In this document: positions 25,694-60,243 of the stretch, one piece after another
How positions within the stretch are numbered: the stretch's first letter is position 1
Layout: every line of letters begins with the position of its first letter
Sequence record: NC_020079.1
Source: Escherichia phage phAPEC8
Direction: 5' to 3' (one strand)
Length of the DNA: 64,000 bases
Made by a program: the position numbers and the translations under genes
The notes under the pieces: model-generated
What the model saw: the letters and a program-made list of their open reading frames with translations, nothing else
Told to the model about the DNA's origin: nothing
Database searches by the model: none

Positions 25694-26164
25694 TCTAGCC
25701 TCCTAAACGCGTCTCTGACGCACTTTTTATATATAAGATGATAAATCACCTTACCTAGTAAGTAAGCTTGCTCTACGAGCCTCTTATGAAGCTTAAGTTA
25801 TACTATTGCTACCTGTTTAAGCAAGGTTTTGCACACAGAAAATAATTTTTAATAAAACTCTTGACTTTTGTGTTCGAAGTATGCTACCCTAGAAATCTAT
25901 TAACGAGCGCAGCGAGTTAAGGTTTTAGGTTGTTGATGTAGTACTCTGTACTAAAGCACTGTACTCCGTACTAGATTAATAATTATTAAATATTAATAAA
26001 TAATTATTAGATCTAACAAACAGGTACAGTGTATCAGAACTGGTACGTACATATCAACTTCTATCAATTAAAAAATAAAATAATAAATTATTATAAATAA
26101 TACTTGATCTATAAATCAGTATGAAGTACAGTACGTAACATCTTAACAAGAATGGAGGTGTGCA
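25694..26164. promoter_or_regulatory. divergent AT-rich control region between the leftward and rightward gene blocks
   Basis: About 470 nt without a credible ORF; GTAC-containing repeats (GTACTCTGTACT, CTGTACTCCGTACT, GTACAGT, GTACGTAC) and AT-only near-palindromes. Confidence 0.45.
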
Positions 26165-27142: not shown

Positions 27143-27217
27143 GGCCCTGTAGCTCAATGGGAGAGCTGTCGGCTCATAACCGATAGGTAGCTGGATCGAA
27201 ACCAGCCAGGGCCACCA
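27143..27217 (+). tRNA. tRNA-Met (anticodon CAT)
   Basis: Hand-folded cloverleaf: acceptor GGCCCTG/CAGGGCC, anticodon loop CTCATAA, encoded CCA; T-loop ATCGAAA. Confidence 0.7.
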
Positions 27218-27219
27218 AC

Positions 27220-27294
27220 GTCTTTATGGTGTAATGGATAGCACAGGAGTCTTCTAAACTCTTAGTCAAGGTTCGATTCCTTGTAAAGACACCA
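27220..27294 (+). tRNA. tRNA-Arg (anticodon TCT)
   Basis: Acceptor GTCTTTA/TAAAGAC, anticodon loop CTTCTAA, T-arm CAAGG-TTCGATT-CCTTG, CCA. Confidence 0.7.
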
Positions 27295-27490
27295 GAACAT
27301 TTTAACATGAATTAGCTCAAGTGATTTGAACCCACTACTGATCATGGTGGCAGAGAATGAGGCAAGTATGTCAGACATTATAAACAAAGGCCACGGTTAC
27401 ATTAGAAGACATAAATGCTCGAAGAGCACCGTTCGTGGAGAACGGGGGTTGGTGGAGTCACCATTCATGGTAAAATGTTTTAAAAAACTA

Positions 27491-27520
27491 TTGACAACTA
27501 ACATTATTTTATGTTAGATT
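27491..27520 (+). promoter_or_regulatory. sigma70-like promoter inside the tRNA operon
   Basis: CTATTGACA, 17-nt spacer, TTAGAT/TAGATT -10; a few nt upstream of tRNA-Ser. Confidence 0.45.
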
Positions 27521-48456: not shown

Positions 48457-48929
48457 TGGCAGATTTAACTACGATCAAAATTTCTGATCTTACACAAACA
48501 ACCTCTGTGTCTGATACAGATTTCTTTGTAACAGATCAGGCTGGAATAACAAAGAAAACTTCTTTGAAAGTGCTGTTGAGTGGTGCAGGGGTAACTAGAA
48601 ACCGTTTAAATGCACGTGGAACAGTAACTAGCACCTTGGCATTAGATATTAGTTCAGCAGAATATTTTTCGGCAACTTTATCTTCTGCAACATGCACAAT
48701 TAGTTTTACTAATATTCCAGTAGCAACAAATGCAGTTTTAAACTTTACTTTAGCTTTGCGTCAAGGAAGTGGTGCAAATAAAGTTGTATGGCCTTCTTCT
48801 GTAAAATGGAGTTTTGGTCGTTCCCCAGTTTTGAGTTATCGTCAAGGTGCAACAGACACTTTTGAGTTTATCAGTTATGATAATGGTGCAACTTGGACAG
48901 GTAGCTTAGTTTTAGCAGGAGTTATTTAA
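48456..48929 (+). CDS. hypothetical baseplate or tail protein (157 aa)
   Basis: ORF track; start overlaps the previous stop. Confidence 0.3.
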   Translation: MADLTTIKISDLTQTTSVSDTDFFVTDQAGITKKTSLKVLLSGAGVTRNRLNARGTVTSTLALDISSAEYFSATLSSATCTISFTNIPVATNAVLNFTLALRQGSGANKVVWPSSVKWSFGRSPVLSYRQGATDTFEFISYDNGATWTGSLVLAGVI

Positions 48930-51805
48930 TGTCAAGAGTTAAGCACAATATTGACAACACGTTTCAGTTGATTGAAGGGTTGGTTCAGTTTTTGGAAAGA
49001 AATACTGGGCTTACCATAGATCCTACGGTTCAGCATTACATTATCAACCCACAAAACGTATTGGCGAACAACAGACACTTTATTAACTGGACAGCGCAGG
49101 AAGGGCAACCAAACGGTGACGCTACTACCGAAGGTCAATCTGTGCTTATCACTGGTTTTGCCTATGCATATTTGGCTACAGGGGATAAAAAATATCTTGA
49201 ATCTGCCGAGAAGTATTGGCAAGCCTATATAGATCACTTCTTCGGGGGCCAACCTATTCCTGATCCTCCGGCTAAATATCGTCCCAACTGGATCATCAAT
49301 GGTAAAGAACCACGTTTAGCACATTACCCTCTCACAGATGATGGGTATCCTACGCACGGTGGGTTCAAAGGTAGCATGATGACTTGGATTAACGGAAGGA
49401 CTGTTATTCCTAAAGGTGCACCGCATTGGGGGGAATACTTAGATAAAGCTTGGTTTGCTTTCAATGGCAATCTTGGTTGGAACTCCGTTAACGCAACAGT
49501 TTATGCAACTAACCCAGATGGTTCAACCAACTGGAAAGAATATGGAGATCAGTGGGACGTTGAATGGATTATAGACCGTCTAGGACGTAAAGTTGATTGG
49601 GATGGTAACATTTTATCTACTGGTCATAGCTTTGCAGAATATGGAACAGTACAACTTAAAAATGCTTCTGTGAACGGGGACTATAAATTCAACTACGCTA
49701 CATGCAATCCTGTAGAACACGGTGGATATCTGCTTAAGCGTAATGAGATGTGGCATAACCGTCCTGTAAACGTTCCGGTAGAGTTAGGCTATCAAGATAA
49801 TGCTTCCGATGCTGAAACGTGGTGGTGTGATGCAAACTACTTGATGTATCAGATCACAGGAGAGAGAAAATACTGGCTTTGCTGGCAATCTTCTTTATTG
49901 TTGTGTCAAGACTACTCAAACATCGATATGTTTGATAAATTCTTCCGTAGATCTACGACAGCAATAATTCCTTTTACAGATGGTATCTCGTATGATTACT
50001 CATACCCATCTACAGCAATACCTAAATATTCTCGTGACGAATTAGGATACACAGTAATTCGCCAAGATGTTTCAGCACAAACAACTCTAGAACAACAGGC
50101 AGTTTGGTTCAGAGTAGATCAGAATTCAAAACTGCGTATTGAGTTTCAAGGTGTAGATGATGCAGGGGAAGGTGTTCTTTTCCGTCCAGAGCTAGAATTA
50201 AGCAAAACTAAGAGTGAAACAGACACAGTGACATATCGTTGTGGCTTACCTCTTGGTGCAGCTAATATGACTAAGATGGATATACCTTTATCTAGTTTTA
50301 TGCGCACCGAACCTCCTGGAGGTGGTGTATATATTATTGCTGAACCTAGAATTATTGTTGACTGGGGAAGCAATACTGTGATACAATATAAATATGCAAC
50401 TGGTATTGCTGGGACAAATAGTGATCAGATAGTTTCTGCTAATATGGATTCAGATGGTGGTTTTACTGTTGGGTTTTGGTTAACACCAACTAAAACAGCC
50501 AATTTAAAATCTATTACGTATCGTTCATACGCAGATGATTTTAACATCACTATTACGGATTCCGCAGGTTGGAGATGGTGGGCCATGTTAGAAAAAACAA
50601 ATTCTGCATGGGTTACTAAAGCTTTAAGTCCTGCTGATTTCAAATTAAGCACTTGGCAACCCAATCATAACGACACAGAGACAAAACCTTCGTCAATAAA
50701 CCTGACTGCTGTTGATCAGATCAACATTGCATTGGATTCTGAACCTGCAAATGGCTTGACAGGGGCAATCGATTTTTATTGTGTTAACGATATCCCATCT
50801 TTGTATTCTTCAGCCGCTGGTGATGATTACACAATGTATTTCAGGGTTACAGTTTCATCTGAAAATCCTTATACAGCAAAACTTGGAGATTGTACAATAC
50901 TGGACTATAAACTTGACAGTTTGAATTATACTCCAGGAATCATTCCATTTTCCAATATTAGTGATCCTAACACAGCATTATATGACGGTTGGCGTGGTAT
51001 TCCTTACCCAGGTTATCAATACCCATCCTTATATTGTTTTAAAGGGAGAGATATTGACTGGGTTCGTATGAACAACAGTATAGACTTTTTATATGATTCA
51101 CAAATGTGGTTTTATAATAAGTTTGCCCCTGTGATGCCTGGGCCAATGGCACAAGCTTATGTTTGGGATCGTTGGGATGCTCATAAATACGGAAACAAGA
51201 ATGAGTTCACAATGTATCATTGGAACGATAAAGCTTGGGATGGTTATGAAGCACGAGCATTCTTCTGTGCGTGTCATACAGTATACGAACTGAAGCAACG
51301 AGGAGCAGAAGTTCCTGAAAAACTTTTAACAGTTTGTAAAAACTGGATCAATTATCTGAAGTGGTTCCAGGATAACAACGAAGGAAGAACACCAACAATA
51401 TTTTATCCCAACGGAGAAGTGGCTGCGCCTGTAGATGACTTTACAAGTCACATGTCTGCGCTCTTTATGGCGGGATGTGCTATAATGGGGATGGCTGGAT
51501 ATGATTCAGAAATTCCTAACATTAAAATAGTAGCAGATCGCTGTTTTGAACTTATTCAGGAAAATTATATTGTTCTTGGTCCTAATCACGTTATGAATGG
51601 TTGTTGGAGTGCTGCTCCTAGACCAGACAGTGATAACGGAGTCTTCTTTGGCTTCCACGCCGGAGAGTTGTTACGTGGTTTTGGGTTGTATGCCTTATAC
51701 AAAAAACTTAATCCCCAAAATGCATTACCTGTTTTGGATTCGAGCAATATTCCTGCACTTACTGTTTTGACAATGGCAAACATTAGTGTGGACGTTACCG
51801 AGTAA
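48929..51805 (+). CDS. large Trp-rich tail-associated protein, possible glycan-degrading enzyme (958 aa)
   Basis: ORF track; many Trp/Tyr/Asp residues reminiscent of glycoside hydrolases; no motif firmly recognised. Confidence 0.3.
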   Translation: MSRVKHNIDNTFQLIEGLVQFLERNTGLTIDPTVQHYIINPQNVLANNRHFINWTAQEGQPNGDATTEGQSVLITGFAYAYLATGDKKYLESAEKYWQAYIDHFFGGQPIPDPPAKYRPNWIINGKEPRLAHYPLTDDGYPTHGGFKGSMMTWINGRTVIPKGAPHWGEYLDKAWFAFNGNLGWNSVNATVYATNPDGSTNWKEYGDQWDVEWIIDRLGRKVDWDGNILSTGHSFAEYGTVQLKNASVNGDYKFNYATCNPVEHGGYLLKRNEMWHNRPVNVPVELGYQDNASDAETWWCDANYLMYQITGERKYWLCWQSSLLLCQDYSNIDMFDKFFRRSTTAIIPFTDGISYDYSYPSTAIPKYSRDELGYTVIRQDVSAQTTLEQQAVWFRVDQNSKLRIEFQGVDDAGEGVLFRPELELSKTKSETDTVTYRCGLPLGAANMTKMDIPLSSFMRTEPPGGGVYIIAEPRIIVDWGSNTVIQYKYATGIAGTNSDQIVSANMDSDGGFTVGFWLTPTKTANLKSITYRSYADDFNITITDSAGWRWWAMLEKTNSAWVTKALSPADFKLSTWQPNHNDTETKPSSINLTAVDQINIALDSEPANGLTGAIDFYCVNDIPSLYSSAAGDDYTMYFRVTVSSENPYTAKLGDCTILDYKLDSLNYTPGIIPFSNISDPNTALYDGWRGIPYPGYQYPSLYCFKGRDIDWVRMNNSIDFLYDSQMWFYNKFAPVMPGPMAQAYVWDRWDAHKYGNKNEFTMYHWNDKAWDGYEARAFFCACHTVYELKQRGAEVPEKLLTVCKNWINYLKWFQDNNEGRTPTIFYPNGEVAAPVDDFTSHMSALFMAGCAIMGMAGYDSEIPNIKIVADRCFELIQENYIVLGPNHVMNGCWSAAPRPDSDNGVFFGFHAGELLRGFGLYALYKKLNPQNALPVLDSSNIPALTVLTMANISVDVTE

Positions 51806-51813
51806 GGGGTAAA

Positions 51814-53967
51814 ATGAAACAAGCTATATTTACTGTCACGCGAGACAAGAGAGTAAATGCGAGTTCATTTAACTACACGACTGTTGATGGAACAGCAGTC
51901 GCTGGTAGAGATTATATTGCAAAATCGGGAACACTTGTGTTCCCTGATGATGCTGATTCTGCTACCATTGTGGTTGAAGTATTTGAACGACCAAAGAACT
52001 CAATAGATCTTAACTTCTCCCTCCAAGTTTCAGGGATTAGTCAAAATAATATGATGGTTGAAACAACCATCAATTGTATTATAACTACTATCCAAGAAAA
52101 TACTACTCCAATAACTTGGACTACAAAAGACGTTAAAATGTTCTCTCCTATGTATTGGACAATAGATTCTCAAGCAACGGAAAGTTGTTCTATTGTATCT
52201 CATGGAGACTCTTTTACTGCAAGATTTGTAAACAGAACAACAGCAGGTTTGGCAGGGGTTATCTGGAGCACAGTTGACAAATATGACCATAAAGGTGTTG
52301 GGTATTTACCCCACACAGATTTAAGTTCAGAGAAACTTTGGTTTAAAATGGAAATTAGTCAAAACATGCCAGGTTTTAAAGAAGAACCTTTGGTGCCGAC
52401 TTTGACTGTAACTCTCCTGGATAAAAGTGTTCATTATGTCAGTTTAGGATTCTACGCTTCAGATATTTCAGAAGATGGTAAAACAGCTACAATCAAGTTA
52501 GATTTTGGTAATATCTTTTCTGGCCCTAATAATGATATTCCTTTGGATATGAGTGCTGTAGATAATATTTTCTTCTCTTTGATTACAGCAAGGTATGAAG
52601 AAATAGAAGAGGTTGTACCTATTGACAGTCAAGAGGCTTGGTTTACTTTCACTCTTCTTGAACCTACTTCTGGTTACAGTATGATGAAAGTCAGCAACCT
52701 TGTCCAGCCTGAACATGATATTCGCATGTGCACATCTTATGATGATATGTATAACCTGACTCCAGAGAGAGTTATTTATAATACATATGCACTAGGTTAT
52801 CGTGGGATGATTAACCATTATAACGGAATGTCTCACTATTATGAGTTCTCATGGAATGGAACATCTTGGGCTTTAAATAAATCTGTTTTCCTGAATCCGG
52901 CTACAGAAGCTTGGCTTAACAGCTTTCATTCTATAGCAAACGAGAAGGGCTACACAATAATGAACTCTTTAAGTTTTGAATTGATGAGCACAGTTTGTCC
53001 TGTAGAATGGGTCCAGCATGATTGGAACGATGCTCTTGCAGCAACAGGGTATAAACCTCCTAGTTATGTGTTGTCTCCAACTATTGACGAAGGTATGGAA
53101 TATTTGCAAAATGTTATTAATAAAATAGCATCTATTTCTCAAGCTAACAATATTCCAGTCGTCATTCAAATTGGTGAACCTTGGTGGTGGTATAATACAG
53201 CAAGTAAAATGCCTTGCATATATGATTACACTACCAAACTGGCATTCAACACAGAAACAGGTTTATTTGCACAAGATGCAGGAACAATAGATAATTATAA
53301 AACAGGAACGCCGTTTGACGAATACTATGCATTTTTGTCTCGTAAACTAGGATTAAGAGTTACAAAGTTTGCAACAGATCCCAGAGCAACTTACCCAGGA
53401 GCCAAGGTAACATTGCTTCCGTTCTTGCCATCAATTATCGGCAACGGTTTGATGGAGAAAGTTAACTTTCCGTCTGATTACTACATTCCTGAAACTTTTG
53501 ATTTTTACTGTTCAGAGTGTTACGACTGGCTTCTGGAAGGTAAAATGATGAAAGCATTCGATGCAATTACCATACCACATGAAAAATTAGGTTTTGAATA
53601 TTCTGATATTCACTATCTTTCGGGTTTTGTTCCAGATGCTACTCTTGCACCTTTGTATGGCTTCGATCCTGAATCAAACTACCGAACGTATCTTTGGAAA
53701 ATGATTATAGGCAATATAGTATTGAACGCCAACAAGTTTGACGGACTTACACAATATATATGGGCCTATCCTCAAATAATGCACGATTCCATCACGGTAG
53801 TTAATTCTCAATCTCAAGTTTTCTATATGGGTAACGTGCCTTTGAACGTTTATTTACAGGATATCACTCTTAAACAGGTAAATGTTGAGATTGCCACCAT
53901 AAGTGGAATTACATTAGCCACTAAATCTGGAGAAGATTTGGTAACAACACAAAAATTTTATATATAG
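51814..53967 (+). CDS. tail-associated protein with N-terminal Calx-beta-like domain (717 aa)
   Basis: TVDGTAVAGRDYIAKSGTLVFPDDADSATIVVEV matches the Calx-beta consensus pattern. Confidence 0.4.
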   Translation: MKQAIFTVTRDKRVNASSFNYTTVDGTAVAGRDYIAKSGTLVFPDDADSATIVVEVFERPKNSIDLNFSLQVSGISQNNMMVETTINCIITTIQENTTPITWTTKDVKMFSPMYWTIDSQATESCSIVSHGDSFTARFVNRTTAGLAGVIWSTVDKYDHKGVGYLPHTDLSSEKLWFKMEISQNMPGFKEEPLVPTLTVTLLDKSVHYVSLGFYASDISEDGKTATIKLDFGNIFSGPNNDIPLDMSAVDNIFFSLITARYEEIEEVVPIDSQEAWFTFTLLEPTSGYSMMKVSNLVQPEHDIRMCTSYDDMYNLTPERVIYNTYALGYRGMINHYNGMSHYYEFSWNGTSWALNKSVFLNPATEAWLNSFHSIANEKGYTIMNSLSFELMSTVCPVEWVQHDWNDALAATGYKPPSYVLSPTIDEGMEYLQNVINKIASISQANNIPVVIQIGEPWWWYNTASKMPCIYDYTTKLAFNTETGLFAQDAGTIDNYKTGTPFDEYYAFLSRKLGLRVTKFATDPRATYPGAKVTLLPFLPSIIGNGLMEKVNFPSDYYIPETFDFYCSECYDWLLEGKMMKAFDAITIPHEKLGFEYSDIHYLSGFVPDATLAPLYGFDPESNYRTYLWKMIIGNIVLNANKFDGLTQYIWAYPQIMHDSITVVNSQSQVFYMGNVPLNVYLQDITLKQVNVEIATISGITLATKSGEDLVTTQKFYI

Positions 53968-53975
53968 GAGTAAAA

Positions 53976-56741
53976 ATGTCAACTACAATTACTAATTTAC
54001 CCGAAACATCAAAAGTTAATGGTTCTGATTACCTGGTTTTAGATCAACCTGATAAGACTGTTAAAAGCACAGTTTCCAACTTTCTTACTGACACTGGGGT
54101 GGTTTTAGCCACCCAGCTAAAAGATACTTCTGGAGCTACCAAGTATCCAGAACTTCAAATGTCACGTTGGAGAGATGAAGGTGATCCTAGAGGATGGGGA
54201 GCAGTAGGTGACGGAGCAACAGACGATACTAATGCCATAACACAGCTTCTTGCTGCTATGCCTGATGGATGGATTGTTGATGGGCGTAATCTCACTTTCA
54301 AGGTTACAACACTACCAGATATAAGCAAGTTTAAAAACGCTGCTTTTGTTTACGAGCGTATTGTTGGACAACCCCTTACTTACGTATCTGAGGGTTTCTT
54401 TGATGGAAATCTGACAAAAATTACGGATACACCATTTTACAATGCTTGGACGCAAGATAAGACGTTTGTTTATGACAATGTTATATATGCACCATTTATG
54501 GCTGGCGAACGTCATGGTGTACAAAACCTCCATGTAGCGTGGGTTAAATCAGGAGATGATGGACAAACTTGGTCTATGCCAGAATGGTTAACTCCAATTC
54601 ATCCTGATTATAATGCCTCTTCAGCAAACAAAGTTAACTATCATTGTATGAGTATGGGTGTATGTGGTAATCGCTTATATGCGGTGATCGAAACCCGTTA
54701 CTTATCTAACATGCGATTGAAGAAAGCAGAACTTTGGTCACGTCCAATGCCTTATTATAGAAGGCCAACTGGAGGCATAACAATTAGTTCTGGGTCTACT
54801 ACAGCGACAATTGTTTTAGAAAAGCATGGTCTTAAAGTTGGAGATGCTGTTAACTTTTCCAATTCAGGTGCAACTGGCGTATCTGGAAATATGACTGTTG
54901 CATCTGTAATTAACAAGGATACATTTACTGTTACATTAGCGAGTGCTGCCACATCTAATATAGATAATACAGGAACTACTTGGCATTTTGGAACACGTTT
55001 CTGGGATAGCCCTTGGGAAATTACAGAATTACCAGATGTTGCCTATTCTACTAATGCAGATTTATGTGTTACAGAAACCCATAGTTTTACAGTTATAGAT
55101 GATGATAATTACACTTTTGCTGTTGGTTATCACAATGGTGATGTTTCCCCAAGAAGATTAGGTATTTTGTATTTCAATAATGCTTACTCTGACCCAAGTT
55201 CTTTTACTCGTAGAACAATTAGTCAAGAATATGCTGACAATGCAGCAGAACCCTGCATTAAATATTATGATGGAATTTTATATTTAACTACCAGGGGTAC
55301 TTCAACTTCTGCTGCTGGTTCTACATTAGCAATGAGTACCGACCTTGGAGAAAACTGGAACTACTTAAGATTCCCTAACAACGTTCATCATACAAACTTA
55401 CCATTTGCAAAAGTTGGTAACTACCTTTATATCTTTGGTACAGAACGTTCATTCGGAGAATGGGAAGGAGAAGAACTAGATAATAGATATAAAGGCACGT
55501 ATCCTCGAACGTTTATGTGCAAGATTAATGTATCTTCATGGCCTACATCTTTATCCGATGTTCAATGGTTTAATATCACTGATCAGATGTATCAAGGGCA
55601 TATTGTTAATTCTGCATGTGGTGTTGGTTCGGTATGTGTTAAAGATGGTTGGTTATATTATATCTTTGGAGGCGAAGATTTCTTATCTCCTTGGTCTATT
55701 GGGGATAATAGTAAAAAATTATGGTACAAGCATGATGGTCATCCAGCCGATTTATATAGTTATAGACTAAAGATTACCGAACATGATTTTGTATCACGTG
55801 ATTTCAAATATGGAGCTACGCCAAACCGTACATTGCCTGTATCTATGGGTACAGATGGGGTAAGGCATGTCTCAGCCCCTGTAACTTTTGATAATGATGT
55901 ACAAGTATACTCTTTAACAGTTACTGGCCTTGAGCATGATGGGACACAACAATCTGCCGTTAGAATAAAATTAGATGGTGATTATGGGGTTGTTGCAAAA
56001 AATGTCCCAATAAAAAATCCTTCTAAACAGCGACTAATCCTATGTGGAGGAGAAACTCCTTACGTTACTGATGGATCGCTATTACAACTATATGGTTCAA
56101 ACCATACGTATCCAAACAGAGCAGTTTTATATGCCCCAGGAGGAGCATATACCCAAAATAATTTCATGCCGTATTTAGATGGACAAGTTGCATTAGGCGG
56201 TGCGTCTAACAGATGGTCAGAAGTGTACGCATCTACAGGAACCATTAATACTTCAGATGGAACATTAAAAACTAAACCTACAGAGATTGAAGATATTTTA
56301 CTGAAAGCATGGGAAGATATTCATGTAATCTCTTACCAATGGCTTAGTGCTGTCGCGGAGAAAGGAGATTCTGCGCGTATTCATTTTGGTGTTATAGCTC
56401 AAGATGTAAGAGATATTCTGATTAATTATGGCTTAATGGATGAAAATAGCACTGATTGTAAGTATGCTTTTCTGTGTTATGATGAATACCCTGCTATGTA
56501 CGATAGTGTTGTTACGGGACAAAAAGAAATCCCTTTATTTGATGATGAAGGGAATGTTGTAATTGATGAAGAAGGTAATCCAGTAACAATCGTAGAAGAT
56601 GTTGTAGAAACTATCGAAATAATTCCAGCAGGATCGCGATGGGGTATCCGCGCTGACCAAATGTTTTTTATTGAGATGGCTTATCAACGTAAAAAGTTAA
56701 AAGCTCTTGAAGAAAGACTTGCAACCCTGGAAAGTAAATAA
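53976..56741 (+). CDS. sialidase-like (Asp-box) tailspike or fibre with C-terminal intramolecular chaperone domain
   Basis: Asp-box repeats SGDDGQTW and STDLGENW; last about 163 aa (from 56250: TSDGTLKTK...GVIAQDV...AYQRKKLKALEERLATLE) match the endosialidase / T5 pb1 chaperone domain. Confidence 0.6.
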   Translation: MSTTITNLPETSKVNGSDYLVLDQPDKTVKSTVSNFLTDTGVVLATQLKDTSGATKYPELQMSRWRDEGDPRGWGAVGDGATDDTNAITQLLAAMPDGWIVDGRNLTFKVTTLPDISKFKNAAFVYERIVGQPLTYVSEGFFDGNLTKITDTPFYNAWTQDKTFVYDNVIYAPFMAGERHGVQNLHVAWVKSGDDGQTWSMPEWLTPIHPDYNASSANKVNYHCMSMGVCGNRLYAVIETRYLSNMRLKKAELWSRPMPYYRRPTGGITISSGSTTATIVLEKHGLKVGDAVNFSNSGATGVSGNMTVASVINKDTFTVTLASAATSNIDNTGTTWHFGTRFWDSPWEITELPDVAYSTNADLCVTETHSFTVIDDDNYTFAVGYHNGDVSPRRLGILYFNNAYSDPSSFTRRTISQEYADNAAEPCIKYYDGILYLTTRGTSTSAAGSTLAMSTDLGENWNYLRFPNNVHHTNLPFAKVGNYLYIFGTERSFGEWEGEELDNRYKGTYPRTFMCKINVSSWPTSLSDVQWFNITDQMYQGHIVNSACGVGSVCVKDGWLYYIFGGEDFLSPWSIGDNSKKLWYKHDGHPADLYSYRLKITEHDFVSRDFKYGATPNRTLPVSMGTDGVRHVSAPVTFDNDVQVYSLTVTGLEHDGTQQSAVRIKLDGDYGVVAKNVPIKNPSKQRLILCGGETPYVTDGSLLQLYGSNHTYPNRAVLYAPGGAYTQNNFMPYLDGQVALGGASNRWSEVYASTGTINTSDGTLKTKPTEIEDILLKAWEDIHVISYQWLSAVAEKGDSARIHFGVIAQDVRDILINYGLMDENSTDCKYAFLCYDEYPAMYDSVVTGQKEIPLFDDEGNVVIDEEGNPVTIVEDVVETIEIIPAGSRWGIRADQMFFIEMAYQRKKLKALEERLATLESK

Positions 56742-56789
56742 TACAGCTTAGGTGGTATTTCAATCTTTATATCCCACTTAGAGGTACTC

Positions 56790-57053
56790 ATGGCTAAAGA
56801 GAAAAATGGTTTTAAAAAATTTATTCGCGGAATGTTCTGCACTTACCCCGGCAACGGGGTAAGCTCTACGAAAGTCTGGAACGCTGTAGGCATGTCTGTT
56901 ATGACAGGCATGTTTATCTTTTTAGGAATAGAAAAAGAAATTCCTGAATGGATGGGCTGGGCTTTTGTTTTCATGATAACCCCTTCTCGCCTCATGAAAA
57001 ATCTTATTGATTTACGTTGGGGCAGATCACAATCTACCAAAGAGGATGACTAA
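56790..57053 (+). CDS. small two-segment membrane protein (87 aa), holin-like topology
   Basis: Two hydrophobic stretches and a charged C-terminus. Confidence 0.3.
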   Translation: MAKEKNGFKKFIRGMFCTYPGNGVSSTKVWNAVGMSVMTGMFIFLGIEKEIPEWMGWAFVFMITPSRLMKNLIDLRWGRSQSTKEDD

Positions 57054-58540
57054 TGGACGAATATGGTTTGACAGATGCGGGATTTGTAATCCCGACTTTT
57101 GACGATGTTTTAAACAACTACATGACAGCAGTAAAAAACACATTTGGTGCAGATGCAGCCACTTCGGAAGACACTGTGATCGGGCAACTGTTTAGAATAA
57201 TTGCATACACAGATTACACATTGTGGGAAGGTATGCAAGGTGTTTATAATACTCAAACACTGGATGGTGCAGAAGGTATTTATCTTGACGAAATCTTTTC
57301 TAAACGCGGTTTCTATCGAGCAGGGGCAGCAGCAAGTACAGGTTATGCATATGTTAAGAGCAATAACAAAGCAGCTTGGACTTATGAGCTAGGCACGGAT
57401 ATTTACTTCAACTCTGATAGTGATATGAACTACTATGTTAGCACACCAACTATGTTGAATGCTAAGATTGCAGCTTATCAAATCTCTTGTGCTAATGCAA
57501 CTGCTACAGGTGTTCCAAATATTACTTTTTATGCACAAAGTGCGGTAGATGGAGGACTAAACAGTAAAACACTTGCACCTGGTTCTTCTACATTTATAAC
57601 CGATCTTGAAACTTTTATCAAGGCAAATTTAACAGAAGCTGATCGTAGTCTTGTATTTTCTGATTCAGGTAACTTATCAATTGGTTTTACTTCTTTAACT
57701 AGTGATACTCCAGTGGGACTGGTAACTCCTATTAAATTTTATGCTAGTGTTCCGGTTGGAACCAAGTGGAGTGAGATTCCGGTAGTTGCAGCAGAGAAAG
57801 GATACAACCCTGTTGGCGTGGAGTCTATTACAGGGATATCTTCTACCTTTACAGGTTATCTTGACAGTGGTAACTTTTATTCATTTTCTCCTGGTCGGGA
57901 TGTTGAGACAGACGCAGAATTCCGCTCTCGTTTCAATGACAACGTTGATGAAGCTAACGCAGGGACACGAGCAGCTATTGTGAAAGCTCTGCTACTTACA
58001 GATGGTGTTACTAAGGTGAAGATTTATGATAACCCTACATTACATGATCAAGAACATGCTCCGGCTATGACTTTCCAGACTATAGTTTATGGAGGAAGTG
58101 CTGAAGAAGTTGCTGAAGTTATTTACAAAACTAAACCAATCAACAGTTTGACACATGGAACAACCAACATAACTGTTACAACGGAAGACGGAGGACAAGA
58201 AATTATTCGTTTTTCTCCTGGTGCTTCTGCTACGTATTCCGTAAAACTTGTTTATCAAACTGTCAACGGAACAACTTTAAGTGGAACAGAAAAACAAAAC
58301 ATTGTAGAAGCTTTACAAAACCTGCAAGCTTACTTTGAATTAGGTTCTTCAGTAACGAACGATCAAATCAAAGGTGTTATTTATGCAGCACTTGCTTTTG
58401 GACGCTTGACTTCTCTTCGTGTTTATGTTAAACTTAATACTGAGGATGACAGTAAATATACAGAGAATAATATAGTTCCTGCTTATAATGTTGTCCCTTC
58501 TTTTGACCTTGATAACATTTCTTACGAGTATGGAGTGTAA
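57053..58540 (+). CDS. putative baseplate wedge protein (J-like)
   Basis: 495 aa; position in the baseplate and fibre module. Confidence 0.3.
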   Translation: MDEYGLTDAGFVIPTFDDVLNNYMTAVKNTFGADAATSEDTVIGQLFRIIAYTDYTLWEGMQGVYNTQTLDGAEGIYLDEIFSKRGFYRAGAAASTGYAYVKSNNKAAWTYELGTDIYFNSDSDMNYYVSTPTMLNAKIAAYQISCANATATGVPNITFYAQSAVDGGLNSKTLAPGSSTFITDLETFIKANLTEADRSLVFSDSGNLSIGFTSLTSDTPVGLVTPIKFYASVPVGTKWSEIPVVAAEKGYNPVGVESITGISSTFTGYLDSGNFYSFSPGRDVETDAEFRSRFNDNVDEANAGTRAAIVKALLLTDGVTKVKIYDNPTLHDQEHAPAMTFQTIVYGGSAEEVAEVIYKTKPINSLTHGTTNITVTTEDGGQEIIRFSPGASATYSVKLVYQTVNGTTLSGTEKQNIVEALQNLQAYFELGSSVTNDQIKGVIYAALAFGRLTSLRVYVKLNTEDDSKYTENNIVPAYNVVPSFDLDNISYEYGV

Positions 58541-58542
58541 AA

Positions 58543-59172
58543 ATGGCAGTGAGTGTTGACCATGTAACAACTTGGGCCAGTATCAATGAAGACGTTAAAA
58601 ACCTTCTGATTGAAGATTTTAAATCTTCTCCTAACATTGTCAAGCTCCTCTACATCGTATCCAGTGAAAAGCAAAAGATAGATCAGGCAATGATCTATCT
58701 TGCTAAACACCGCTTGATCTCCACAGCCACAGGCAAATACCTAGATATCTTAGGAGAAGAAATGGGGATCGAACGTAATGGCTCTGATGATGAAGAGTAT
58801 AGAACAATATTAAAAATCAGGGCTTACCGCGTAGCCTCATCGGGGACTCGTGGTGACATAATTGATATCTTCGCCCGTTTCACAGGAACAGAGCGTGAAA
58901 CGCTTAATACTTACGTAGGTTTGAATAAAACCTTTGATGTGTTTTTCTACAACCTGTGTCTTCAATCTGATCAAGCTTTAGAGCAGTTGCTAAGTGTTTT
59001 CCCTATTATTAGTAGCTACCGTCTTGGAGCAAAAGCAGGATCAGCTTTTGGTTTTAGTTCTTATTATGCTACCAAACCGCCTCATGGTATTGGTGGTTTA
59101 GGTTCCCTGTACATGGAATCTACTGGGGATGAAACAGGACGCATGTGTACGCTTCTCAAGCAAATAGATTAA
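58543..59172 (+). CDS. putative baseplate protein (209 aa)
   Basis: ORF track; gene order. Confidence 0.3.
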   Translation: MAVSVDHVTTWASINEDVKNLLIEDFKSSPNIVKLLYIVSSEKQKIDQAMIYLAKHRLISTATGKYLDILGEEMGIERNGSDDEEYRTILKIRAYRVASSGTRGDIIDIFARFTGTERETLNTYVGLNKTFDVFFYNLCLQSDQALEQLLSVFPIISSYRLGAKAGSAFGFSSYYATKPPHGIGGLGSLYMESTGDETGRMCTLLKQID

Positions 59173-59181
59173 GGAGTTTAA

Positions 59182-60243
59182 ATGGCGAAGCCAATATATT
59201 ATCCTGACTGGGCTACACAAACTGTAACGCTCCCAGGAACTTTAAACACAAACAAAATTAGACCTAAAGAAACCATCCGCACAATTGGTATGGATTATGG
59301 TCAAATCATGACTTGCGAAGAGATGAACTGGATTCTTAATAATATCGGTTTATGGATTCGCTATTTGGTGGATGATTTTCTTCCAACTTTACCTAATACC
59401 TACTTGCCTTTAGTGGGAACTAAGATTACAATGGCAGGTGATGCTACTGGTGAGGCCACTTGGAACGGTAACAAAGAAGTTACTTTATCTATCCAAGTTC
59501 AAGATAACAGTCATAATCACTTGTCAGCAAACATTACAGATGCTACTAGTTCAACAGTAACACCAAACGTGTTGGTAAAACGTGATGCGGGTGGTGCTAT
59601 TTATGGTGGCGATGTTTATGTTAACGGTACTTCCACAACAGATCCTGCAACACTGTTCTTCAAAAACTTTGCAGGACAAACAAATGGTGAGATTTCTGCC
59701 GAGTATCAAAGCGGAGGTCAGCTTTACATCTATCGTAGAAATCCTAGCACAGGTAGTGTATCGGCAGGTGTTCGTTTATATGATGCAGGTTATGTTCTAA
59801 TAGATAATCCAAGATCGAACAGTGGACAAGATACTTCTAACGGAAATGCTTTAGTTCGTTTAGATTATCTGAACTCTCGTTTGACTTCCCTTCAGAACAC
59901 ATTGCAGACGAATATTAACACTGTTCAAAACAACTTGAATAATGTTAACAACAACCTCTCTTCTCGTATAAACAATGTAGAAAGTAATCATCAAAGTCAG
60001 ATTACAAATAACTACAACTATGCTAACGGAACCTTTGTAAGAGATATTCGTTATACTAGCCAAGGTGTGTATTATCCACCAGGGAACGAGGTTTCTTGGA
60101 CTTATATCTGTTCTTCTGGTTATGTTCTTTCTGGTATTATCGTACAGGAAACAGGACGTAGCTCTGCGGATAACATCGGTGGGGTTTACTTCAAACGCCT
60201 CCAGCGCAACGTTAACGGAAACTGGTACGATATTGGAGGCTAA
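59182..60243 (+). CDS. putative tail fibre protein
   Basis: 353 aa; Asn/Gln-rich heptad-like segment NTLQTNINTVQNNLNNVNNNLSSRINNVESN. Confidence 0.4.
   Translation: MAKPIYYPDWATQTVTLPGTLNTNKIRPKETIRTIGMDYGQIMTCEEMNWILNNIGLWIRYLVDDFLPTLPNTYLPLVGTKITMAGDATGEATWNGNKEVTLSIQVQDNSHNHLSANITDATSSTVTPNVLVKRDAGGAIYGGDVYVNGTSTTDPATLFFKNFAGQTNGEISAEYQSGGQLYIYRRNPSTGSVSAGVRLYDAGYVLIDNPRSNSGQDTSNGNALVRLDYLNSRLTSLQNTLQTNINTVQNNLNNVNNNLSSRINNVESNHQSQITNNYNYANGTFVRDIRYTSQGVYYPPGNEVSWTYICSSGYVLSGIIVQETGRSSADNIGGVYFKRLQRNVNGNWYDIGG

Follow-up and report, generated by a model that had tools for sequence, protein, structure and literature searches.

An endo-N-acetylneuraminidase tailspike precursor of the phi92 type, with a predicted self-released chaperone domain, in Escherichia phage phAPEC8

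The stretch of DNA analyzed here, hereafter the window, comprises 64,000 nucleotides of Escherichia phage phAPEC8 (NC_020079.1), and the subject of this report is one gene on its plus strand, at positions 53976 to 56741. In the open reading frame listing of the window this gene runs without interruption from an ATG start codon to its stop and encodes a product of 921 amino acids, and an AGGAG ribosome-binding (Shine-Dalgarno) motif lies 5' of the ATG. The gene belongs to the tail/baseplate module, where it occupies the third place in a run consisting of gp141-like, gp142-like, endosialidase, gp144-like, gp145-like (Baseplate_J), gp146-like and gp147-like genes, an order that is the same in phage phi92. 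With a probability of about 0.96, we interpret the product as the precursor of the homotrimeric endo-N-acetylneuraminidase tailspike of a phi92/phAPEC8-like myophage (subfamily Stephanstirmvirinae), equipped with a self-released chaperone. The domain architecture, the near-identity to the characterized phi92 enzyme and the conservation of each residue checked in the catalytic and self-cleavage sets are direct observations. The gene is a real and already described one, and its nature was correctly recognized in an initial annotation made from the sequence alone. Scans of positions 53700-57100 yielded 14 promoter-like sites, compared to 13.1 expected by chance, and 3 terminator-like sites, compared to 2.3 expected by chance, so that no gene-specific regulatory element is claimed in this interval. 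The open reading frames in other frames or on the opposite strand within the gene are all 61-80 codons long and were taken to be chance occurrences.

The gene and the parts of its product are as follows.

53976..56741, plus strand: endosialidase tailspike precursor gene, orthologue of phi92 gene 143; 921 codons plus stop, complete
53976..54200, plus strand: N-terminal adaptor, residues 1-75, recognized by its invariance across related tailspikes; no Pfam family covers residues 1-75
54201..54401, plus strand: endosialidase N-terminal extension, residues 76-142 (PF12218 End_N_terminal, E 3.5e-33, profile positions 1-67 of 67)
54402..55775, plus strand: catalytic beta-propeller, residues 143-600, with both Asp-boxes and the active-site residues (PF12217 End_beta_propel)
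54750..54998, plus strand: beta-barrel inserted in the propeller, residues 259-341 (PF12195 End_beta_barrel, E 4.1e-38, profile positions 1-83 of 83)
55782..56252, plus strand: trimeric stalk, residues 603-759, with the mature C-terminus at Thr759 (PF12219 End_tail_spike, E 5.1e-63, profile positions 2-160 of 160)
56253..56738, plus strand: intramolecular chaperone domain, residues 760-921, 162 amino acids, predicted to be released (PF13884 Peptidase_S74)

All four Pfam families of phage endosialidases match the protein over their full length, with scores of 113-708 bits. The highest-scoring of these, the End_beta_propel family, covers residues 143-600 (profile positions 1-366 of 367) with 707.7 bits and E 3.6e-213, and the match to the beta-barrel family is nested within it; in the literature this propeller is described as having six blades. 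The barrel has been identified as a polysialic acid-binding domain in endoNF, the endosialidase of phage K1F (PMC12632334). The initial annotation had proposed a sialidase beta-propeller on the strength of two Asp-boxes, and both the fold and the motifs are borne out: SGDDGQTW is found at residues 192-199 (positions 54549-54572) and STDLGENW at residues 454-461 (positions 55335-55358). When the protein was shuffled 20,000 times with its composition preserved, the strict motif S-x-D-x-G-x-x-[WFY] occurred 0.046 times per shuffle and two or more copies were present in 0.1% of the shuffles, so that chance does not account for the pair. The propeller, the inserted barrel, the stalk, the active site and the two Asp-boxes that characterize the phage endosialidases (endo-N-acetylneuraminidase, GH58) are thus all present in this protein.

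Searches against solved structures point in the same direction. Residues 75-759 are nearly identical to the phi92 endosialidase in PDB entry 4HIZ (E = 0, 1573 bits), which consists of three chains of identical sequence, each ending in TGTINT at the equivalent of residue 759. The same segment matches the K1F endoNF structures 1V0E, 3GVL, 3GVJ and 3GVK with E of about 1e-237, and residues 663-921 match 3GW6, a construct of the K1F stalk and chaperone domain, with E 1.6e-70. Aligned over 851 residues, the protein and K1F gp17 are 54% identical. The K1F catalytic residues H350, R549, E581, R596 and R647, named in a deep-mutational-scanning study (PMC12632334), correspond to H180, R393, E425, R440 and R491, and are identical in every case. 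Equally identical are the second-shell residues, with K1F Q330, D331, H527, S528, K585 and N699 corresponding to Q160, D161, H369, S370, K429 and N545.

For the C-terminal part, the initial annotation had postulated an auto-cleaving chaperone domain of the type found in endosialidases and T5 pb1, and this prediction is well supported. The Peptidase_S74 family ("Chaperone of endosialidase") matches residues 760-819 with 48 bits (cut-off 22) and adjoins the end of the stalk family at residue 759. In addition to 3GW6, the domain matches T5 pb1 (4UW8, E 1.6e-7) and the GA-1 neck appendage (3GUD). The K1F cleavage site T910|S911 and the base K916 are conserved as T759|S760 and K765, and the self-cleavage residues reported for T5 pb1, namely D1239, R1250, T1263, S1264 and K1269 (PMC4690869), have their counterparts in D735 (-25), R746 (-14), T759 (-1), S760 (0) and K765 (+5), with the same spacing as in K1F and T5 pb1. 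The two residues in this set that would act as folding sensors, D735 and R746, fall within the stalk. Moreover, the phi92 record (FR775895.2) describes gp143 as the endosialidase 92 precursor with two mature peptides, of which endoN92* is annotated as the proteolytically matured endo-alpha-2,8-sialidase and endoN92-CTD as the released "intramolecular triple-beta-helix chaperone domain"; the latter begins at the serine homologous to Ser760. Because the mature peptide coordinates in phi92 and the C-terminus of the 4HIZ chains agree, cleavage is predicted by homology between T759 and S760, such that the mature chain would end at Thr759 (position 56252) and the released domain would comprise residues 760-921 (positions 56253-56738). 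The initial annotation had placed the domain in the last 163 or so residues, from position 56250; the domain is there, and its start moves by one codon, to Ser760 at position 56253, leaving 162 residues.

The closest relatives of the gene are found in a set of Escherichia phages. Its nucleotide sequence is 99.1-99.2% identical to those of genes in MirsaeidiM_Esher1, PNJ1809-36, ASO2A and ECO340P2, and 98.2-98.3% identical to those of ESCO5, REC and nepoznato, where the gene is annotated as an endo-N-acetylneuraminidase. All seven genes are 2766 nucleotides long and have flanks that are 98-99% identical to those in the window; they differ from the phAPEC8 gene by a handful of point substitutions, amounting to 5 residues in the case of the MirsaeidiM_Esher1 protein. 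The labels attached to them vary among tail fiber, tail spike and endo-N-acetylneuraminidase, and several carry merely the name "tail fiber". The rest of the window is likewise 98-99% identical to the PNJ1809-36, ASO2A and ESCO5 group. Phage ECO340P1, which has the same flanking genes, is classified in Stephanstirmvirinae; Phapecoctavirus.

Among characterized enzymes the nearest is endoN92 of phi92 (gp143), reportedly described by Schwarzer et al. in J Virol in 2012 and in Virology in 2015, with which the phAPEC8 gene shares 96.3% of its nucleotides and 96.9% of its amino acids. The two proteins have the same domain order (adaptor, extension, propeller with barrel, stalk and cleaved chaperone domain) and identical catalytic and cleavage residues, and both genes lie between homologues of gp142 and gp144. 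The codon differences between them comprise 61 synonymous and 26 non-synonymous changes, a ratio that suggests purifying selection on a working gene. The two also differ in their genomic background, which in the window is Phapecoctavirus-like. The endosialidase endoNF of K1F (gp17; 1V0E, 3GVL, 3GW6) is a more distant relative that shares the catalytic module, with 60% identity in the propeller and the same catalytic residues, as well as the C-terminal chaperone domain with its Ser/Lys dyad (53% identity). K1F, a podovirus, carries only one type of spike, and its gp17 differs from the window protein in having a T7-type adaptor (capsid or tail) that measures about 245 residues instead of about 75 and a stalk that is only 38% identical. 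Beyond the endosialidases, T5 pb1 and the GA-1 neck appendage possess homologous chaperone domains (E 1.6e-7 to 2.6e-9), and these, along with MYRF-type ICA domains (MEROPS S74), share the Asp at -25, the Arg at -14, the Thr-Ser scissile bond and the Lys at +5, attached to unrelated passengers, namely a fibre tip, an appendage and a transcription factor.

On the basis of this homology, together with established knowledge of the endosialidase family, which also underlie our expectations on the trimerization, the cleavage event, the substrate range and the virion location of the window protein, the following mechanism can be proposed. Three precursor chains would join through their C-terminal chaperone domains (residues 760-921), which would nucleate or template the folding of the trimeric stalk (residues 603-759). 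Correct folding of the stalk would set Arg746 of a neighbouring chain beside Asp735 and Thr759, completing the oxyanion environment, whereupon Ser760, as the nucleophile activated by the base Lys765, would cut the Thr759-Ser760 bond. The 162-residue chaperone domain would then leave, and a kinetically stable trimeric spike would stay behind. The mature spike (residues 2-759) is expected to dock on the baseplate by its first 75 or so residues, in keeping with the presumed role of the adaptor (residues 1-75) in fixing the spike to the baseplate; the beta-barrel would bind polysialic acid and the propeller, through H180, R393, E425, R440 and R491, would cleave the polymer internally. In this manner the phage could tunnel through the capsules of E. 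coli K1 (alpha-2,8-linked) and probably K92 (alternating alpha-2,8/2,9 linkages).

With respect to the substrate, the phi92 enzyme has been reported to digest both K1 and K92 capsules (PMC10269720; PMC10975011), and the depolymerase of ESCO5 and REC is 96% identical to it (PMC10269720). Given the 96.9% amino acid identity to endoN92, the same range of K1 plus K92 is the default expectation for the phAPEC8 enzyme, which likely acts on both polymers rather than on K1 alone. The initial annotation had envisaged a polysialic acid depolymerase of the K1 type, a proposal that gains support from the annotation of phi92 gp143 as regards the polymer, and that is probably too narrow as regards the range, since the closest enzyme is reported to act on K1 and K92. 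Nothing that contradicts an endosialidase of the phi92 type turned up in this analysis.

Three other explanations deserve consideration. The first, which we regard as unlikely, accepts a phi92-type endosialidase and supposes that its linkage preference or processivity has shifted, for example to alpha-2,8 linkages only, as in K1F, or toward greater activity on alpha-2,9 linkages. Several observations pull in this direction. The window protein (921 residues) and phi92 gp143 (918 residues) are separated by 26 substitutions and a three-residue insertion, N213-A214-S215, which sits in the propeller loop following the first Asp-box; among the 29 differing positions that result are 12 changes in the propeller. 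In the stalk, we take K1F R837, S848 and Q853 to form the polysialic acid-binding site b, linked to processivity; two of these three are unconserved, only the Arg being kept in phi92 and the window protein alike, and one position of this site differs even between the latter two, with V697 in the window protein and T694 in phi92. The closest relatives, moreover, were isolated on avian pathogenic and O2 E. coli, not on K92 strains. Given these substitutions and the poor conservation of the stalk site, processivity and linkage preference are not certain from the sequence, and there is a small possibility of quantitative differences from endoN92 in processivity or regioselectivity. In contrast, no difference was seen at any catalytic or second-shell residue examined, the overall amino acid identity is 96.9%, and the differences are spread across all domains without clustering.

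Much less probable still is a catalytically dead tailspike that would bind polysialic acid without cleaving it. This explanation was raised solely because binding and cleavage are separable in the endosialidase family: in laboratory mutants of K1 phage endosialidases, the one was reportedly dissociated from the other (Jakobsson et al. 2007). The retention of H180, R393, E425, R440 and R491, together with the 61 synonymous as opposed to 26 non-synonymous changes that separate the gene from that of the active phi92 enzyme, argues against such a loss of activity.

The least probable explanation, in which the protein would be no virion tailspike but a generic GH33/BNR exo-sialidase or a sialidase of non-phage origin, could draw on the two Asp-boxes and a weak match to BNR_2 (PF13088), but is refuted by the Pfam, structure and nucleotide matches, given that the BNR_2 score of 15.3 bits is under the cut-off of 31.4 bits whereas the phage endosialidase families reach 113-708 bits, and that the gene is part of a phage tail module in a genome with 11 tRNA genes that is 98-99% identical to sequenced Escherichia myophages. 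No stretch of the protein passes the BNR_2 threshold on its own, so that of the two families for which the initial annotation had recommended a profile search, S74 peptidase is recovered above its threshold (48 versus 22 bits) and BNR is not, the propeller being captured by PF12217 instead. On these profile scores the protein is placed outside BNR_2, and its likeness to the BNR/GH33 exo-sialidases is confined to the fold and the Asp-boxes.

The comparison with phi92 also bears on the history of the locus. While the endosialidase gene and its phi92 counterpart share 96.3% of their nucleotides, the six flanking genes (48929-53967 and 56790-60243) are only 66.6-79.1% identical, and the block of high identity extends from approximately 53915 to 56790, that is, from about 60 nucleotides 5' of the ATG to about 50 nucleotides past the stop codon. 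This sharp contrast between the gene and its flanks indicates that the Justusliebigvirus lineage, to which phi92 belongs, and the Phapecoctavirus lineage exchanged the whole endosialidase cassette, apparently in recent times. At least 80% of the gene is carried by 12 phage records, as opposed to 63 records that carry at least 80% of the surrounding 25 kilobases at 95-99% identity.

In the alignment of the window protein with the tailspikes of phi92, ECO340P1 and SF1-1, residues 1 to about 76, ending in the motif RGWGA, are nearly invariant, and divergence sets in afterwards. At the DNA level, the first 76 or so codons (53976-54202) are 94-96% identical to ECO340P1 (locus L004, 3001-3227) and SF1-1 (locus L005, 4001-4239), and homology breaks off at window position 54202 with respect to the former and 54214 with respect to the latter. 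The alignments define the RGWGA motif as the putative recombination junction. Beyond residues 1-76, the tailspikes encoded at the same locus in these two phages are unrelated to the endosialidase: the one in ECO340P1 has 536 residues and no Pfam match, and the one in SF1-1 has 625 residues and contains a pectate-lyase-like domain. The SF1-1 protein is annotated as "Endo-alpha-sialidase" although it lacks an endosialidase domain, a label that it probably received in error because of the N-terminus that it has in common with the endosialidase. Furthermore, a segment of ECO340P1 (L004, 4614-4912) that corresponds to window positions 56443-56741, namely the last 100 or so codons of the chaperone domain, is 96% identical at the nucleotide level; it has no coding sequence annotated, is apparently non-coding and lies directly 3' of the stop codon of that phage's own tailspike gene. 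This remnant looks like a relic of an endosialidase gene whose body was replaced in the ECO340P1 lineage.

It is conceivable, though improbable, that the exchanged cassette allele, with its NAS insertion and V697, has a linkage preference or processivity measurably unlike that of endoN92; if this were true, it would offer a natural variant for studies of endosialidase regioselectivity.

Several observations concern the neighbouring genes, all on the plus strand. The gp142-like gene (51814-53967) encodes a protein of 717 residues that shows 76.6% amino acid identity to phi92 gp142 and contains an N-terminal Calx-beta domain together with PF23844 and PF23845 (N-terminal and TIM-barrel domains of a "non-contractile tail sheath protein"); in one GenBank relative it is mislabelled "capsid protein". 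Upstream of it, the gp141-like gene (48929-51805) encodes a large tail protein of 958 residues with 83.2% amino acid identity to its phi92 counterpart and no match to any Pfam family at E <= 0.001; phi92 gp141 is entered in a review table as a glycosidase-type receptor-binding protein. The least conserved of the neighbours is the gp147-like protein (59182-60243), with 62.9% amino acid identity to phi92 gp147, a length of 353 compared to 326 residues, no Pfam match and an abundance of Asn/Gln/Ser repeats in its C-terminal half; a role as a further variable determinant of host range is possible. At a greater distance, the tRNA genes of the window are clustered at 27143-29148 on the plus strand (Met, Arg, Ser, Tyr, Asn, Thr, Gly, Gln, Pro, Ile and Met). 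The GC skew changes sign around position 26000, being negative over 1-26000 and positive over 26001-64000, which would fit a switch in transcription from a minus-strand module of nucleotide metabolism and replication to a plus-strand module of tRNA and structural genes.

Published work already covers the enzyme family, the crystal structure of the phi92 orthologue, the self-cleaving chaperone mechanism and the occurrence of the enzyme both in phi92 and in phAPEC8-like phages, and the endosialidase finding raises no new question, its value being practical only. The pattern of exchange at the locus provides a clean textbook example of the modularity of tailspikes. With regard to the organism, the phage likely targets K1/K92 capsules, which is relevant to the prediction of host range and of practical value for treating K1 E. 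coli infections (neonatal meningitis, avian colibacillosis) with phages or enzymes.

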